64,000 bases of DNA from the NCBI GenBank assembly GCA_034530615.2, contig JAVRCV020000063.1:8976-72975 (forward strand), written 5' to 3'. The translations under genes and the position numbers were made by a program. This document shows, piece by piece, positions 783 through 34,754 of this stretch. Position 1 is the stretch's first letter, and every line of letters starts with the position of its first letter. Source of the stretch: Aulosira sp. ZfuVER01 (GTDB lineage Bacteria > Cyanobacteriota > Cyanobacteriia > Cyanobacteriales > Nostocaceae). The notes under the pieces are model-generated. The model searched no databases and was not told the DNA's origin. It saw nothing but the letters and a program-made list of their open reading frames with translations.

Positions 783-1538
783 ATGGGCAAAAATCAGCGC
801 GATCGCACAGCCAAACTTTACCCAGCAGCACCACCAGGAGTTGTCTTTCACGTGCATGGAGTTGCTAAAATCTACCGCATGGGTGAGGTGGAAGTTCATG
901 CACTAAAGTCGGTTGACCTTGACCTTTATGAGGGAGAATTTGTCGTACTACTGGGGCCTTCAGGTAGTGGTAAGTCAACTCTGCTTAATATTCTGGGTGG
1001 TTTGGATGTGCCTTCTCAAGGTCATGTTTTTTTTGGCGATCGCGAGCTGACAAATGCTAGCGAGGCAGAACTTACCCGGTTTCGGCGCGACTGTGTGGGT
1101 TTTGTCTTTCAGTTCTACAATTTAATTCCCAGCCTCACCGCTAGAGAAAATGTCATGCTGGTGACAGATATTGCCCGTCATCCCATGCGTCCGGAGCAAG
1201 CTTTGGCTTTGGTAGGATTAAGCGATCGCCTGGATCATTTTCCCGCCCAAATGTCTGGTGGCGAACAGCAACGAGTAGCGATCGCCCGGGCTATTGCCAA
1301 GCGCCCGCAGGTATTGTTATGCGATGAACCCACAGGCGCGCTGGATTTTCAGACAGGTAAATTAGTATTAGCAGCCCTAGAACAAGTCAATCGTGAACTC
1401 GGTACAACAACTGTGGTAATTACACACAATGCAGGTATCGCAGCAATGGCAGATCGAGTGGTGACAATGCGTAGCGGTCAAATTGCCAAAGTACAGCAAA
1501 ATCAGCAAAAGCTGGCTCCTGAGGAATTAGAGTGGTAG
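783..1538 (+). CDS. ABC transporter ATP-binding protein (LolD/MacB-like)
   Basis: Walker [10 protein letters not shown], signature [14 protein letters not shown], Walker B LLCDEPT; start placed at ATG 783 because the upstream extension is repeat DNA. Confidence 0.9.
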
Positions 1539-1734
1539 AAGGAGGCAGTCCCATTCATGAACAGGAGACGCGGAGACGCGGGGATACGGGGAAAAGATCA
1601 ATGATTCTTTCAAGTCAGTCAATCACGGGAAAAACCCACAACCAAACATAAAAATCTAATTCCCCGCTTCTCCCTGTCTCCGCGTCCGCATGTCTATCTC
1701 AAAGCTAAAACTGCCCTTTGCCTTCAACACATTC

Positions 1735-4101
1735 ATGAAAGCTACTGATATCAAACTGCTACGTGACCTCTGGCATTCTCGCGGTCAAATGATTGCGATC
1801 GCTTTGGTTGTGGCTTGCGGAATTGCTAGCTTTGTCTCGATGCTGAGTGCTTACGAATCCCTGAAGCTGTCCCAAACTACTTATTACCAAGAATATCGTT
1901 TTGCTCAGGTCTTCGCTCAACTCAAACGCGCCCCTGAATCCCTGAGAACGAAAATTGAGGAAATTCCGGGAGTAGCGCAGGTGCAAACACGGGTAGTAGC
2001 AGATGTTAGCCTCGATATTCCGGGCAGAAGTGAACCAGCGATCGGCAGGTTAATTTCCATACCTGAACGGCAAACACCCATACTCAATGACCTGTTTATC
2101 CGTCGGGGGCGCTATATCCAACCAGAGCGAGATAATGAAGTATTAATTAGTGAAAGCTTTGCCAAAGCCCATCGGCTAGATTTAGGCGATACGCTAGGTG
2201 CAGTGATTAATGGACGCTGGCAAAAATTACAAATTGTTGGGATAGCACTTTCACCAGAGTATGTCTACGCCATCCAAGGGACAGGTGATATTTTCCCAGA
2301 TAATCAGCGATTTGGCGTTTTTTGGATGGAACGCAAGGGACTAGGAACGGCCTTTGATATGGATGGGGCGTTTAATGATGTCACCCTAACACTGATGCGG
2401 GGAGCAATTGAGCCAGATGTAATTTTTCGCCTTGATAAATTGCTAGAAAGATATGGCGGATTTGGTGCTTACCTGCGCAAAGATCAGCTTTCTAACCGCT
2501 TTCTCTCAGAAGAAATTACCCAACTGCAAGGCACAGCAACTATAGTACCTTCAATTTTTTTGGCGATCGCTGCCTTTCTGCTGCACATTTTATTATCTCG
2601 CCTCATCGCTACCCAAAGAGATCAAATCGCTGTCCTTAAGGCTTTTGGCTACAACAATTTCAGCATTGGTTGGCATTACCTGAAGTTTGTCTTGGCAATT
2701 GTCTTTACAGGTGCAACCTTGGGAACGACTTTAGGACTGTGGTTTGGTTCGGCTATAACTCACAACTATGCCCGCTTTTTCTCTTTTCCCATTCTCCGCT
2801 ATCAAGTAGGCATAGCTGCGGCGATCGGGTCAATTCTCATTAGTGGTGGTGCAGCAGTAATTGGTGCTTTTATGGCTGTACAAAAAGCGGTTTCTCTCCC
2901 GCCAGCAGAAGCAATGCGTCCTGAACCACCCGCCCATTTTCGCCCCACCATAGCCGAACGCCTGGGATTTAGGCATCTTTTATCACCCACGGGTTTAATC
3001 GTACTGCGCAATCTAGAACGCAAACCAGTACAGGCAATTTTATCTACCGTAGGTGTAGCTTTAGCTGTGGCGATTTTAGTTGTTGGTCGCTATTCTACAG
3101 ATGCGATGCAACACATGATTGATGTACAGTTCCGCAATGTCCAGCGCGAAGATGTGACAATTGTTTTCAATCAGCCGCGTCCATCCCGTGTGAGGTATGA
3201 AGTTGCTCATTTACCTGGTGTTTTACACGCTGAACTATTCCGGGTAGTAGCCGCTAGGTTGCGATTTGAACACCGTACCTATCGCCTGGCAATTACTGGG
3301 TTAGAAGCAGGGGGAGAATTGCGGCGTTTGGTAAATCGGCAATTGCAGACTGTCTATTTACCCCCGAATGGCGTGGTATTAACAACAAAGTTAGCAGAAA
3401 TTCTCCGAGTAAAACCCGGTGATATGCTGATAGTAGAGGTGTTGGAAGGAGAAAGACCAACCCGCACCATTGCCGTAGTTGGCTTGGTAGATGAACTGAT
3501 TGGTGTGGCTGCATATATGGATATCCATGCTTTAAATCAGTTGATGCGTGAAGGCGGAACTGTCTCCGGCGCTTATCTGGCTGCTGATGCGTTGCAAATC
3601 AATCGCTTGTATTCTTTATTAAAACGCACGCCCGGAGTTACAGGCGTGTCTGTGCGAGAAATGGCGATCGCGCGTTTTCAAGAAACTATTGCTGGTAGTC
3701 TCGGTATTTTTACAACTGTATTGGTAATTTTTGCTGGCATTATCGCTTTTGGTGTGATTTACAACGCCGCCCGTATTGCCTTATCAGAACGCAGTCGGGA
3801 ATTAGCAACTTTACGGGTAATTGGTTTTACGCAAGCTGAGATTGCATTTATCCTCCTCAACGAACAAGCTGTATTAACTCTTGCAGCTATTCCCTTAGGG
3901 TTTGCGATCGGATTTGGCTTGTGTGCTTTGATGTCTATTGGTTATAACTCAGAACTTTATCGCTTTCCCTTATATGTCACTAAAGCAAGCTTTGCCTTTG
4001 CTTTTATTTATGTAGCAATTTCGGCGGTAATTTCTGGGTTAATTGTCCGTCGCCAGCTTGTTCATTTGGATTTAGTTGCTGTATTGAAAACGAGGGAATG
4101 A
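1735..4101 (+). CDS. ABC transporter permease with duplicated MacB/FtsX-like domains
   Basis: Two FtsX-like halves (QRDQIAVLKAFG; ERSRELATLRVIGF) with multiple TM segments; follows the ATPase gene. Confidence 0.88.
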   Translation: MKATDIKLLRDLWHSRGQMIAIALVVACGIASFVSMLSAYESLKLSQTTYYQEYRFAQVFAQLKRAPESLRTKIEEIPGVAQVQTRVVADVSLDIPGRSEPAIGRLISIPERQTPILNDLFIRRGRYIQPERDNEVLISESFAKAHRLDLGDTLGAVINGRWQKLQIVGIALSPEYVYAIQGTGDIFPDNQRFGVFWMERKGLGTAFDMDGAFNDVTLTLMRGAIEPDVIFRLDKLLERYGGFGAYLRKDQLSNRFLSEEITQLQGTATIVPSIFLAIAAFLLHILLSRLIATQRDQIAVLKAFGYNNFSIGWHYLKFVLAIVFTGATLGTTLGLWFGSAITHNYARFFSFPILRYQVGIAAAIGSILISGGAAVIGAFMAVQKAVSLPPAEAMRPEPPAHFRPTIAERLGFRHLLSPTGLIVLRNLERKPVQAILSTVGVALAVAILVVGRYSTDAMQHMIDVQFRNVQREDVTIVFNQPRPSRVRYEVAHLPGVLHAELFRVVAARLRFEHRTYRLAITGLEAGGELRRLVNRQLQTVYLPPNGVVLTTKLAEILRVKPGDMLIVEVLEGERPTRTIAVVGLVDELIGVAAYMDIHALNQLMREGGTVSGAYLAADALQINRLYSLLKRTPGVTGVSVREMAIARFQETIAGSLGIFTTVLVIFAGIIAFGVIYNAARIALSERSRELATLRVIGFTQAEIAFILLNEQAVLTLAAIPLGFAIGFGLCALMSIGYNSELYRFPLYVTKASFAFAFIYVAISAVISGLIVRRQLVHLDLVAVLKTRE

Positions 4102-29394: not shown

Positions 29395-30276
29395 TTAAGA
29401 GATATCTTTTAATTTACTCCATAATTCAAGCGCAGGAATTTGGCAAATTCCTGCAAATTGGGCATCTGCTGTTTCTATCACAATCCACTCACCAGTTTCT
29501 AATTGCCCAATATCAATTGCCACATAGGGAACTCCAAGGCGTTTAGATGCTAGCAATGCCAAGTTTAAAACTTGCTTTTCTTCTTGTTGAGATAACTTGC
29601 TCAAATCATCTTTACTATCCCAATAATATCCATACTTGAGAATATGATGATTATAAATAAAGCATCTAAATTCTCTTCCCATAGGAAAGCCGTTAGGAGC
29701 TAAACGTTGATGTCGCAGCTTCACTAACTTTCTGACAATCACTCTACCTCGTGAACCATATTTGAGTTTTAATAACCATTCTGTTAACTTGACTAATTCT
29801 TCTTGATTATTGGCTACGCAAGATTCCCATCCTTGTTGCTTTCTTGATTGAACTGCGCCTTTAATAAATACAGGAAATCCCAATAATTCACCTGCTTTGA
29901 TACATTCCTGCGTCGATGTAATAACTACACTATCAGGCGTTAATCCTTGTAAATGTGGGTAAAACAAGTCAAATTCTAGTGCTGTCTGATGCTCTAACGG
30001 AGTGTTGAGTAATTTTATCTTTTTAGCTAAAGCAGCTTGATATATAGCTTCGTACCTTTCTAACTCAGGAATATATCCTACCCAAATTCCAGCAGTTTCT
30101 TTGGGATAGTTAGGAACATGCCATAGAGCATTTTCTACTGTGCCGCAGCGTTGAAAATCTCTTGGTATATGGTAAACTTTAAAACCTAATATTTGAGCAG
30201 TCTCAGTCATTAATTTATTTTCATTAGCGCTGGCTGATGCTGCTATTTGCTCGGTAGATTCGCTTAAAACAATCAT
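29395..30276 (-). CDS. ATP-grasp domain protein (DUF4343-like)
   Basis: FPVFIKG, REFRCF and AIDIGQLETGEWIVIE. Confidence 0.75.
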   Translation of the reverse strand: MIVLSESTEQIAASASANENKLMTETAQILGFKVYHIPRDFQRCGTVENALWHVPNYPKETAGIWVGYIPELERYEAIYQAALAKKIKLLNTPLEHQTALEFDLFYPHLQGLTPDSVVITSTQECIKAGELLGFPVFIKGAVQSRKQQGWESCVANNQEELVKLTEWLLKLKYGSRGRVIVRKLVKLRHQRLAPNGFPMGREFRCFIYNHHILKYGYYWDSKDDLSKLSQQEEKQVLNLALLASKRLGVPYVAIDIGQLETGEWIVIETADAQFAGICQIPALELWSKLKDIS

Positions 30277-30365: not shown

Positions 30366-31085
30366 TTATCCTTTTACACACAAGACTTGCTTGAGTGTTG
30401 CTACAACTTCAACCAAATCTGCTTGATTTGCCATTACTTCATCTATCGGTTTGTAAGCACCGGGAATTTCATCTAATACCCCCTCATCCTTACGGCATTC
30501 TACGCCTTTAGTTTGCTCTATTAAATCATCGAGAGTGTAGACATTTTTTGCCTTGTTTCTAGACAGTAGCCTGCCTGCACCATGACTGCAAGAGCAAAAA
30601 CTGTGAGCATTACCTTTACCTTTAACAATGAAAGATTTAGCTCCCATGGAACCGGGAATTATGCCATAGTCTTCAGTTCGGGCACGGACTGCTCCCTTAC
30701 GAGTAACATACACATCTTCGTCAAAATGTACTTCTTTTTCGGCATAATTGTGATGACAATTCACTTCTAATAAAGGTTTAGTAGGCTTTCCTCCTGCTAA
30801 ATGTTTTTCGATAATACGCTTAAATCGCGCCATCATCACATCACGGTTGAAACTTGCGTAATCTTGTGCCCATTGTAAATCGTTCCAGTATGCTTCAAAT
30901 TCTGGTGTACCAGCGACAAAATGAGCTAAATCTGGATCGGGTAATTTATTACCTGCCATCTTTGCTAATTCTTTAGCTGTATTAATATGGCATTGCGCTA
31001 AATTATTGCCGATGTTGCGCGAACCGGAATGCAGCATCAACCAAACTTGGTTCTCTGTATCGAGGCAAACCTCAATAAAATGGTT
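30366..31085 (-). CDS. rtcB: RtcB RNA ligase, exon 2
   Basis: NHFIE, LHSGSR, CHHNY, TRKGA, PGSMG and SHGAGR motifs. Confidence 0.93.
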   Translation of the reverse strand, partial: NHFIEVCLDTENQVWLMLHSGSRNIGNNLAQCHINTAKELAKMAGNKLPDPDLAHFVAGTPEFEAYWNDLQWAQDYASFNRDVMMARFKRIIEKHLAGGKPTKPLLEVNCHHNYAEKEVHFDEDVYVTRKGAVRARTEDYGIIPGSMGAKSFIVKGKGNAHSFCSCSHGAGRLLSRNKAKNVYTLDDLIEQTKGVECRKDEGVLDEIPGAYKPIDEVMANQADLVEVVATLKQVLCVKG

Positions 31086-31896
31086 CAATTTGTTACTGAT
31101 TGCTTGCTTTGCTTATTTAGTCTCCACAGTCTTAATTCAATACTGTTTCGACTTCTGCCTAGCACTTTCATCAATAAATTTTATAGATAAAAGTTGCAAT
31201 CGATCAAGTCATTTCTGCTTGATTCTATACCTTCCTATTTGGTATAGTTCGGAGCACACCTTCATCCTAAATAAATTAGGATGCTCAAGTCCCTCTGCTC
31301 TCTACGGGGCGTTTTACCGCTTCCCTCGGTATTAGCGAGTAAATCTTTTAAGATACTGCTGCAAAAACTGTCTGAACTCATCATCTGTTCTTTTACCTTT
31401 TAATTGGTTACAGTTTTGACAAGTTACAGATATGTTGGTTATGTGGTGTAGTTCGTTTCTACTTAAAAGTGTTTTGTGGTCAATACGACTTGTTCTTTAT
31501 TTAATTGGATTTGGCAATAAAAGCAACACGGATTTCTTTCATATAATTCTTTTAAATCCTTTGCTTTTAACGGTTCTGATAATTTGATTATTTGTCCTGC
31601 CAAACCTTTTCGTCTTGAACCACTACTATTTAATGATTTTGATCTTATATTCCAATATTGAGGTTGGTTTTTTTTCGCTCCATTTCTGAATTGCTCGGTC
31701 AGTTTGAACTTTTTTGCTACACCACATTTAGAGCATATCTTTGTACCGATTTTATATACTTCTTATTTTACAGTTTCTTTGTTATTAGATTACCGAAAAT
31801 TAAGACCGAAGTATATAACAGATTTACTATTTCTCAGCCTTCACCGATTTGGACGAGTTTTGATTACTGCATTACTACAGTAAGGGGCAATCTTTT
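31086..31896 (-). ncRNA. Group I self-splicing intron (811 nt) in rtcB
   Basis: Exon 1 ends in U with P1 GGGGU/GCCCC (U-G wobble); AAAUCGGUGAA (31840-31850); GCUAAUACCGAG (31325-31336); P7 GAGCA/UGCUC; P8 CAUCCUAA/UUAGGAUG; terminal G at 31086; removal restores GSLGGG-NHFIE in frame. Confidence 0.92.
31332..31760 (-). pseudogene. Intron-encoded HNH homing endonuclease, frameshifted
   Basis: KICSKCG...CCFYC in one frame, then DHKTLLSR...TNISVTCQNCNQLKGKRT in another after a frameshift near 31482; no in-frame start. Confidence 0.8.
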
Positions 31897-32358
31897 ACCC
31901 CCTCCCAGAGAACCCATTTGTTTCATTGCTTTACTTTGCAGATTTTGCACACCACGATGCAAATCTTTAAAGCTACTCCAGCGTTGCCAATTACTAACAG
32001 ATTTTTCAACCTCTTTATTTTCGTTGAATCCAGTAGGAATTGCTGCTTCAATATCCAAGCGGATTTTCTTTAGTTTGCCTTCTAGTTGTTCACCAGTAAA
32101 TGGCATTTTAATCGCACACATTCCGCAACCCACATCTACACCGACAGCAGCAGGTATAATGGCTTCTTTTGTCGCTAATACAGAACCAACTAAAGCACCT
32201 TTACCTAAATGGACATCTGGCATCAATGCTACGTGTTTAAATACAAATGGCAATGATGCTACATTCTTGGCCATTTTGGTTTCTTCTGGCCCCAAAGCAT
32301 GATTAGCCCAAGATAAAACTGGTGCTGGTGTAGTAATTTCTAACTTTTCGTAGGGCAT
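31897..32358 (-). CDS. rtcB: RtcB RNA ligase, exon 1
   Basis: MPDVHLGKG, AVGVDVGCG and QMGSLGGG; 154 codons, giving a 393-aa spliced product. Confidence 0.93.
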
Positions 32359-32552: not shown

Positions 32553-34754
32553 TTAAGTTAGAGATTTTGTGAAAAGGCGACCATCCAAAACTAGGCTAAG
32601 TTGCCTGTTGGCAAGAACGCTAGTTCCTAGGATATAAGGAGCAACTGGGATTGCTTCCCCTAGAGGATGGATCGTAGAGGATTGTTTGCCGATGATGCAA
32701 TCTACTTCTAAAGCACATAGTTTGTCTAAATAACGAAATACTAATAACGGCTTATCCTGCTTGAAAGCATTTAGTGTATCTGTACTGTAGGTGTTAACTG
32801 GGGTAGGAAAGTGGTTAGGAGAAATCAGCACATCAGTCAGTAAGTGGATAGGGACGAGCATTTCCGTTGTTGGGAAGCCACTGGTGCCAGAAGACTGCAA
32901 AAATAACATGCGTCCCGCTTGAGTTTGGAGAATTTGTTCGGACTGGGATAAACAAATTTGCTCTACGGAATCGGCAACAAATGCATAGAGTCTGGAGTTA
33001 GCTTGACAGACGATAAGTTGAGCAATTTTTTGCTCTAGGGGAATTTGCAGCGAGAAGGCTGTACCATGTCCAGCTTTAGACTTCAATACTATTCTTCCTT
33101 GAATAGCTGTTAATTGCTTGCAAACTTCAGTTAATTCTGCTCCTAACTCTAAAGCAGCGCGATCGCACAAAACAGATGAAACTTCTGGTTCAAGTATTAG
33201 TTCAGTCGGTTGTAGAATATCCCCTGGTTTTGTCAGGGCGAATCCTTGGGCTAAAGCTTGTTGATAGATTTGAGATAAGTTAAGTCCTGCGCCATCATCA
33301 CAGCCATCAATAATTAGTTGATTTCCCTGCTGGTAAACTTGAATTTCGATGATACCATTGCTATTTTTACCTAGCTGTTGGCGTGTTTGGCAAGACTCTA
33401 TACTTTGTTCTAGTAAATAACAACTGATATGCAGTAGCAGGACACGGAGGCGATCGCTCAACGCCCGATCGACTTGGATATCACTAATTTGTAAATGTAG
33501 TCTAGCAGACTTATCTTGTAGAGCTTGTAACTGAGACCAAAGCCGATACAATGGTTCTAAGGCTACTTTTAAAGGAATAGTTGTAACTTTTTTAACTAAA
33601 TCAGCAGAACGGTTAAGTAAATTTTCCTGCTGTACGATTTCTTGTTTGAGTTGGTAACGCTCGTTATTCAGGGAATGAACAGTTGATGCCACAACAGACG
33701 CTTGAGCTAAAACAGATTGCAAAGTACTGTACAATTGCTGAGAGCGAGAAGCAGCTAAAGGGGAAAGGGTATCTGAAATTGCTGCTAAAAGTCCTGACCA
33801 TTCCTGTAAATTATCCAGCAGGCGTTGTAATCGTTTAACTTGTCGAAGCAACTGCCCGATAGTATGTTGCTGTTGTTCTTCCTGACAAGCTTGCTGATTA
33901 TAGTGAGTTAGTAATGTTGTAATCAGTGCATTTAGTTGTTCGAGATGCTGAATATTGATTGGTGTGGCGGCTGGAATACTGGTTGCAACAAGGGTGGGAA
34001 TGTATTCTTGTAAAGAGAGTGTATGGCGATCACTCAAAGATTTAACTAGGGATGCTTCAGATGTTTCAGCAGGTAGGAAAAAATCTCCCAACCAAGCCTG
34101 AAACTCTTCTTCCCCATATTCCTCCAGGTTTGCTAGTTCTCCTATCTTAGCGGGAAGTCGCTCGGTATCTACGTGATAAAGGCTGCCAGACTGAGGGCTA
34201 GTTTCATCTATTAGCTCCTTGTCTTTAACCGTAACTTGCTCTGCTAGAGCCGCAGAAGATTCTACCTCGGACAAGGAATCGCCAAACTGGATAACTGATT
34301 GATGTTCCGGTGATCGCTCTAACGATGTATCAAGGTTTGTTTCCTGGGAATCCCTAAACTCTGCTTGCAAACGAGCAACAATGGCAGACATCCGCTCCAG
34401 AATTTCTACTTCCTCAATTTTCGAGGCTGTTAAAAATCCCATCAACAGCATCTGTAGGCAATCTAATCCTTCCGACAATAGGGAGGCGATGGGAGCGTCA
34501 ATAATTGCCCGATACTGATACAAAAGCTGAAAAATCTCTTCTAGTGCAGCCGCAACTATAGCAATCGTCTCTAGTTCGGCTGCTATAGCAATCGAATGCA
34601 GAGAGCCAGCAGCTTCCATGAGAGCCAAAGCTGTACCGGGGTTACTGTCTTTTGTATAGTTAGGCAACTCCTGCTCCAAGAACAGTAACAAATCGATCGC
34701 TTCTTCTAGAAAGCGATCGTCGTTCTGCGGTTGGGGGACAAAATCGGTACTCAT
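32553..34754 (-). CDS. Degenerate CheA-like protein (Hpt-like, HATPase-like and CheW domains)
   Basis: FLEEA start, DDGAG, GHGTAFSLQIP and C-terminal CheW; Hpt His and N-box are replaced. Confidence 0.8.
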   Translation of the reverse strand: MSTDFVPQPQNDDRFLEEAIDLLLFLEQELPNYTKDSNPGTALALMEAAGSLHSIAIAAELETIAIVAAALEEIFQLLYQYRAIIDAPIASLLSEGLDCLQMLLMGFLTASKIEEVEILERMSAIVARLQAEFRDSQETNLDTSLERSPEHQSVIQFGDSLSEVESSAALAEQVTVKDKELIDETSPQSGSLYHVDTERLPAKIGELANLEEYGEEEFQAWLGDFFLPAETSEASLVKSLSDRHTLSLQEYIPTLVATSIPAATPINIQHLEQLNALITTLLTHYNQQACQEEQQQHTIGQLLRQVKRLQRLLDNLQEWSGLLAAISDTLSPLAASRSQQLYSTLQSVLAQASVVASTVHSLNNERYQLKQEIVQQENLLNRSADLVKKVTTIPLKVALEPLYRLWSQLQALQDKSARLHLQISDIQVDRALSDRLRVLLLHISCYLLEQSIESCQTRQQLGKNSNGIIEIQVYQQGNQLIIDGCDDGAGLNLSQIYQQALAQGFALTKPGDILQPTELILEPEVSSVLCDRAALELGAELTEVCKQLTAIQGRIVLKSKAGHGTAFSLQIPLEQKIAQLIVCQANSRLYAFVADSVEQICLSQSEQILQTQAGRMLFLQSSGTSGFPTTEMLVPIHLLTDVLISPNHFPTPVNTYSTDTLNAFKQDKPLLVFRYLDKLCALEVDCIIGKQSSTIHPLGEAIPVAPYILGTSVLANRQLSLVLDGRLFTKSLT

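Follow-up and report, generated by a model that had tools for sequence, protein, structure and literature searches.

The 64,000-nt stretch of contig JAVRCV020000063.1 of Aulosira sp. ZfuVER01 analysed here (the window, to which all coordinates refer) contains an rtcB gene that is split into two exons, both on the minus strand. Exon 1 (31897..32358, minus), as given by the ORF table, comprises 154 codons, ends in ...GSLGGG and matches positions 2-115 of the Pfam RtcB profile PF01139 (E 1.9e-29). Exon 2 (30366..31085, minus) comprises 239 codons and a stop, starts with NHFIE and matches positions 154-426 (E 4.5e-89). Joining the exons computationally gives a 393-aa RtcB reading ...GSLGGGNHFIE..., which is a full-length match to PF01139 with the GGGNHF motif restored; the histidine of NHF is presumably a metal ligand of RtcB. 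Residues 1-393 of the joined product align with residues 1-393 of an uninterrupted same-family ortholog (G006, 393 aa) at 89% identity and with 0 gaps, in agreement with an earlier reading of this DNA from the sequence alone (hereafter the sequence-only reading), which had expected excision to leave an intact 393-aa RtcB. The exons are under constraint, with dN/dS of 0.03-0.09 against one intron-bearing and one intron-less ortholog.

Downstream of rtcB lies an ATP-grasp protein of the R2K clade (29395-30276, minus), and upstream a 733-aa protein whose C-terminus is weakly CheW-like (32553-34754, minus); neither rtcA nor archease was found adjoining rtcB among the window neighbours examined. 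Another contig of the genome encodes a further RtcB paralog, divergent and 481 aa long, in which GSGNHFVE is intact (C36:6793-8064; L031 1495-2940, minus), and a third contig carries a 130-aa ORF that matches the RtcB C-terminus alone (C50; L033 1447-1839).

The sequence separating the exons is an 811-nt insert (31086..31896, minus) that falls exactly between the codons of GSLGGG|NHFIE. The sequence-only reading had placed it there, and the coordinates, the Pfam matches and homologs inserted at the same codon all bear this out. Its G+C content is 34%, compared with 41% for the exons. Each of its three frames contains stops, with the first in-frame one 10 codons past exon 1, and 811 is not divisible by 3; an intein or read-through sequence is thereby excluded.

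Read on the minus strand, the insert can be laid out with the helices of a group I intron, and every element named in the sequence-only reading (P1 with its U.G pair, P3, P4, P7 as GAGCA/UGCUC, P8, an extended P9 region and the terminal G) is present. The internal guide sequence (31882..31892, minus) begins with GAUU, which pairs with the first bases of exon 2 as P10, and continues with GCCCCUU, which pairs with the last bases of exon 1 as P1. It is followed by the P2 hairpin with a GUAA loop (31866..31881, minus), in which 4 of 6 pairs are compensated and which folds as a hairpin in 28/28 distinct members of the family. The 5' strand of P3, CUCGUCC (31851..31857, minus), pairs with 31284-31292 (GGACUUGAG) and is 100% paired across the alignment, and the 5' strand of P4, UCGGUG (31842..31847, minus), has its partner UACCGA at 31326-31331. 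The P5a stem, AGUAAAUCU / AGAUUUACU (31338..31828, minus), encloses an insert of ~470 nt that the alignment shows to be missing from relatives of 237-394 nt. The P6 hairpin (31306..31325, minus) is supported by alignment pairing and by segment folding. The catalytic core (31252..31300, minus) comprises the P7 5' strand GAGCA, J7/3, the P3 3' strand, the P8 hairpin, J8/7 with AAGGUG and the P7 3' strand UGCUC. Beyond it lie the P9 and P9.1 hairpins (31203..31247, minus), with a conserved L9.1 CAGAAAUGA and 4/6 compensated pairs in P9.1, and the P9.2 stem GAUUGC / GCAAUC (31098..31201, minus), again with 4/6 pairs compensated; within this stem is what is left of the position that a LAGLIDADG gene occupies in relatives. 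The intron ends in a terminal G (omega G; 31086, minus) that is invariant in alignments of 15 and 13 sequences. By eye, P7.1/P7.2 are absent, as is a long P5abc from the minimal forms.

A structure of 71 pairs from P1 to P10, with P7 as a pseudoknot, was drawn on the 237-nt form and scored on a MAFFT alignment of 15 cyanobacterial sequences. The proposed helices are 98.4% paired, a figure obtained on the same, closely related sequences from which the structure was derived. Sixteen of the 71 pairs are changed on both sides, compared with 3.1 +/- 1.4 in shuffles (0/500 reach 16) and 0-3 in slid controls, and these compensated pairs are located in P2, P4, P7, P8, P9.1, P9.2 and P10. P7 is 100% paired and shows a C-G to U-A double change in 2/15 sequences; the core of P1 is paired in 15/15, with the exon U opposite the guide G (U.G) in all 15, and P10 is 95% paired. 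Across the 28 distinct members, which include the forms from viral contigs, the long-range outer pair of P3 is C-G, G-C or U-A depending on the member. MAFFT misaligns P2, P6 and P8 between the cyanobacterial and phage forms, and these segments were therefore folded one sequence at a time; folded singly, the P2, P4-P6 and P8 segments adopt a common layout in the 28 members despite their differing sequences. RNAalifold, run on a mixed MAFFT alignment of cyanobacterial and phage forms, recovered P1, P8, P9, P9.1 and P9.2 and mis-drew P4/P7, the pseudoknot not being drawable by this program.

The P1 guide tracks the exon codons across phyla (GGGGGU/GCCCC, GGAGGU/GCCUCC and AGCGGU/GCCGC), and the last base of exon 1 is U in all intron-bearing alleles (15/15, 13/13 and 75/75), compared with A or G in 3/3 intron-less alleles examined.

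The intron also contains the remains of two homing-endonuclease genes. An HNH pseudogene (31317..31744, minus) extends over two reading frames and shows internal stops and a ~26-residue gap, as delimited by tblastn. When the intact 173-aa HNH ORF of a relative (L017, G282), which matches Pfam HNH PF01844 with E 3.6e-10, was compared with the window by tblastn, identity was 45% over 117 columns and 36% over 135 in frames +3 and +2; at the DNA level the ORF is 70% identical to the pseudogene. No open frame with an HNH domain (PF01844) is present in the window intron, the alignment running only across two frames, and from its sequence the HNH copy is a pseudogene. The second remnant is the 3'-terminal 28 codons of a LAGLIDADG gene (31088..31171, minus), of which 25/28 are identical by tblastn to the C-terminus of the 269-aa ORF that long relatives carry in P9.2 (L006; Pfam LAGLIDADG_3, PF14528, E 1.1e-8). 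These final codons alone are kept, and an open LAGLIDADG frame (PF14528) is absent from the window intron. The sequence-only reading was right about the intron and its exons, and did not notice the minus-strand orientation or either endonuclease remnant. In the genome that carries the intact HNH ORF, this ORF is immediately preceded by a class II ribonucleotide-reductase-like ORF that ends in ...NPCG (G282; L017 44-1908); judged from sequence, this locus is probably another intron with common HNH cargo.

The intron is not confined to this genome. The sequence-only reading had proposed a survey of rtcB genes for inserts at the same codon, and such inserts were found in 15/300 other genomes of the order by DNA search (16/301 including this one, in 6 families), and, among sequences sharing an exact 20-nt core of the intron, in 34/35 viral contigs and in 75/77 species genomes. 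Within the order, 23/301 genomes gave any match: 16 with conserved ends and core at E <= 8e-50, G282 with the endonuclease region alone, and 6 with short weak matches that were ignored. An rtcB ortholog is present in 215/301 genomes, so that the intron occupies 16/215, or ~7%, of the orthologs. Both junctions are readable in 14 relatives, and in 14/14 the insertion lies exactly between GSLGGG and NHF(I/L)E; in the fifteenth, G020, the locus is cut by a contig end. The lengths at this site in the order are 237, 238, 275, 394, 394, 811 and 1036-1067 nt. Comparison with the short forms identifies positions ~78-550 of the window copy as an insertion into a peripheral stem, and the long forms (1036-1067 nt) carry a different insertion of ~740 nt further 3'. 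No second copy of the intron was found in the own genome by DNA search.

Thirty-five viral contigs, 76-400 kb long, contain this exact 20-nt core, which is made up of the P7 5' strand, J7/3 and most of the P3 3' strand. In 34 of these the intron lies in rtcB at the same site, 31 having both junction motifs and 3 the exon 1 motif directly 5'. The contigs are putative phages and are redundant, with 11 distinct introns among the 31 and a common prefix in 25/35 contig names. Their introns measure 240-251 or 899-946 nt, and their RtcB exons are very unlike the cyanobacterial ones. One viral contig (L054 1392-1628) carries a 237-nt intron of the family, very near the cyanobacterial type, in the 3' end of a 297-aa ORF other than rtcB; its neighbour on the opposite strand is a 444-aa ORF whose N-terminus we take to be GIY-YIG endonuclease-like. 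When the 394-nt form was compared with the phage collection by blastn, the sole match was a chance-like 53 nt in a gut phage capsid gene.

The same core is found in 77 one-genome-per-species records, and in 75 of them the rtcB exon 1 motif G(S/T)(L/I)G(G/S)G precedes it by 94-229 nt; in the other two, L120 and L126, the rtcB context is not resolved. By record title, ~57 of the 77 are cyanobacteria and the others are Acidobacteriota, Armatimonadota, Firmicutes and single metagenome bins, giving at least four phyla overall. In bins labelled Gracilibacteria or 'uncultured bacterium' (L122, L079 and others), the core accompanies cyanobacterial-type exons, and mis-binning is possible there. Pieces of the window intron are 93-100% identical to those of G094, versus an exon dS of 0.7-1.3 for the same pair, which suggests recent lateral spread or strong constraint.

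The intron family lies below the curated threshold of Rfam. At gathering score, no Rfam family matched the window or 9 related loci, and a search of 30900-32100 at E up to 10 gave nothing of group I, with chance-level snoRNA and leader matches alone. In narrow scans with the group I model RF00028, one of three loci was matched: a 237-nt relative (L013) aligned end to end with model positions 1-253 at 27.1 bits (E 3.5e-5; gathering threshold 50), and the phage forms L039 and L056 did not match. The helices P1-P9 that the model assigns to this relative agree with our manual structure. In a pooled E-value scan, RF00028 matched 0/10 loci, and the L013 match was lost too, probably to stricter filters. 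The 50-bit gathering score, which the rtcB intron does not reach, is one model's detection threshold and not a property that defines the class. The sequence-only reading had counted the lack of a covariance-model hit, along with that of a spliced cDNA, as grounds for rejecting its call; Rfam is blind to the window copy, and the covariance-model part of this test would give a false negative.

Elsewhere in the genome, RF00028 detects one canonical group I intron, at 81 bits, on another contig (C34:33377-33627; L073), around which ARAGORN found no tRNA. An intergenic candidate below threshold scores 23.6 bits (C46:75512-75681; L074). Another sub-threshold match falls within a 726-aa ORF that is intact, and is probably spurious.

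RNA data from relatives contain the predicted exon joint. Four RNA runs were compared with the window at 85% likeness, stretches left uncovered carrying no evidential weight; the runs come from relatives and not from ZfuVER01, each holding only 6-7% of the sampled words of the gene. A joint skipping exactly 811 nt is present in 3/4 runs from 2 studies. Placed at 31083 to 31895, it can shift by 2 letters and so coincides with the predicted 31085|31897, and it carries the U typical of intron-bearing alleles. The joint is seen in assembled contigs rather than reads, with 28 letters on one side (bridging rule 31), and DNA in the libraries is possible. A single-organism transcriptome (run X5) has the joint as a 58-nt contig that agrees with the window at every letter, at a depth of 181; 58 nt would be the length expected from a 31-mer graph for a junction with a 2-letter overlap. 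The same run holds an intron-containing contig of the LAGLIDADG-bearing form at a depth of 304. Two metatranscriptomes contain the exon joint together with a 952-nt contig of an HNH-bearing form like that of the window (41 other letters over 660). This contig differs from the window by +1 at 31481, -1 in an A run at 31668 and +69 nt at 31715-31751. Since these differences sit at the frame breaks of the window copy, a close relative probably retains an open HNH gene. Run X7 gave no match.

Taken as a whole, the homology, the covariation, the endonuclease cargo and the RNA junction of relatives support the group I assignment, and we are highly confident that the 811-nt insert is a group I intron homed into rtcB at GGG|NHF that restores a 393-aa RtcB on splicing. 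Group I splicing consists of guanosine attack at the 5' splice site and, with the omega G, ligation of the exons. By analogy with the family, the pre-mRNA would fold into the P1-P10 core, with the guide GCCCC holding the last exon 1 base in a U.G pair, and an external guanosine would attack 3' of that U. Once the terminal G occupied the G site, ligation of the exons would produce the 393-aa RtcB; this chemistry is that expected of the family, and the resulting joint is the one seen in the RNA of relatives. On this reading the intron formerly carried a LAGLIDADG gene in P9.2; it now has a decayed HNH gene in P5a. Because both endonuclease genes have decayed, the window copy is most likely immobile, and most likely it is still spliced. 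The ~470-nt insert in P5a could slow its folding. The distribution of the family is best explained by lateral movement among cyanobacteria, other phyla and large phages, a part of the same reading that we hold with high confidence as a whole. There is about an even chance that a single intron lineage shuttles between large phages and the chromosomes of several bacterial phyla by way of this one rtcB position, exchanging endonuclease genes as it goes.

The sequence-only reading had also proposed that, since the ribozyme and the ligase both use guanosine/GTP and divalent metal, splicing might be conditional. Our analysis lends this no support, and insertion at a conserved motif is the usual mark of homing. 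A broader version, wherein splicing is tied to the state of the cell (GTP, Mg2+ or ribosome traffic) and thereby gates RtcB output, is quite unlikely, although some indirect observations are in keeping with it. An early in-frame stop, 1-14 codons into the intron, is conserved in all 48 introns examined (15 cyanobacterial and 33 viral). Such a stop is described as typical of bacterial mRNA group I introns in the available part of a 2014 review (PMC3984707), which also describes their splicing as likely to be affected by ribosome traffic. In the available portion of PMC8421152, translational stress induces Anabaena rtcB at a late stage. The early stop and the ribozyme might together link RtcB output to the translational state of the cell, a proposal to which we likewise give little credence; if true, it would make the intron a ribozyme checkpoint on an RNA-repair enzyme. 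However, the patchy spread (16/215 orthologs, most being without the intron), the endonuclease cargo and the presence in phages fit a selfish element. With a second, 481-aa RtcB encoded in the genome, RtcB supply is not wholly ribozyme-dependent, which qualifies the earlier suggestion that RtcB production hinges on a ribozyme.

It is very unlikely that the window copy is a splicing-dead relic, its rtcB a pseudogene and the divergent paralog the source of RtcB. The decay of the endonuclease genes, the existence of that paralog, a single C.A mismatch in P10 of the window copy and the origin of the RNA joint in relatives rather than ZfuVER01 are all compatible with such a relic. Both exons, however, are free of stops and gaps and have the low dN/dS given above, and all core helices are paired, the sole core change unique to the window being U.G to U-A in P3. 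In addition, the two metatranscriptomes pair the HNH-bearing 952-nt contig with the exon joint. A transposon, a MITE, another insertion or an intein is scarcely credible, being favoured by the lack of an Rfam match on the window and by nothing further; a transposon or MITE is contradicted by the exact RNA joint, the covarying RNA helices and the codon-exact site conserved across phyla, and an intein by the stops and length of the insert. A homed and still functional group I intron thus remains the preferred reading.

With this intron, an element of a known kind gains a new host gene, rtcB, which joins the short list of bacterial chromosomal protein-gene hosts. The intron is widespread rather than a one-off: at this codon, the exact core recurs in 75 species-representative genomes and 34 viral contigs, and the family is specific to one rtcB site. 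Annotation pipelines will probably label such rtcB genes as split or as pseudogenes, so that a functional RNA-repair gene is undercounted. The natural coexistence of minimal (237 nt) and cargo-bearing forms, with two endonuclease insertion points, is convenient for studying cargo turnover and the traffic of introns between phages and hosts.

No published report of a group I intron in rtcB was found in the titles and abstracts among the matches listed, a search whose scope excluded subscription journals and which a passing mention may have escaped; this agrees with the sequence-only reading, for which rtcB was not a known, characterised group I host. In the part of the 2014 review that is available (PMC3984707), the bacterial protein-gene hosts are flagellin, recA, nrdE of Bacillus and cyanobacterial nrdE. 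The rtcB intron resembles the introns described there in its group I core within a conserved motif, its early stop and its homing-endonuclease cargo in peripheral loops. Unlike them, it resides in a host gene that is off that list, and its lineage also occurs in large viral contigs and, by record title, in at least four phyla.

The same organisms harbour RF00028-type introns in tRNA genes, which are ribozymes of the same kind. In contrast to the 81-bit RF00028-type intron of the own genome, the rtcB intron is missed by Rfam, has P9.1/P9.2 extensions and lies in an mRNA.

Among phage group I introns, those of T4 td, nrdB and nrdD carry endonuclease genes. The DNA polymerase intron of cyanophage Pf-WMP3 encodes the HNH enzyme I-PfoP3I, as stated in the accessible text of PMC3428280. 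As in these phages, a mobile intron with an endonuclease occupies a conserved enzyme gene, and ORF-less and ORF-bearing forms coexist. Unlike the phage introns, which are described as subgroup IA2, the rtcB intron lacks P7.1/P7.2 between P3' and P8 and has another host gene. The available part of a study that discusses RtcB of jumbo phages (PMC7824862) makes no mention of introns in it.

The available portion of PMC4760082 names RtcB as a host of inteins in Cyanobacteria and in further phyla, consistent with the sequence-only reading. Same-family rtcB orthologs likewise contain inteins, at GVD(I/L)G|C...HN|CGM (L035, G214, 1005-3152, 715 aa; L036, G149, 131-1876, minus, 581 aa), and many open frames of 540-750 aa suggest that the intein is common in rtcB orthologs. 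Like the RtcB inteins (PMC4760082, as far as its available part goes), the intron is a selfish element in a metal-binding motif of rtcB; unlike it, the inteins are spliced at the protein level and occupy a different motif ~77 codons upstream of the intron site. An intron and, in sister genomes, an intein at different metal-binding motifs of one gene make rtcB a hot spot for selfish elements. The rtcB introns of the viral contigs have the GGG|NH site and the exact 20-nt core in common with the window copy, whereas the window copy is chromosomal and carries its HNH sequence in P5a.
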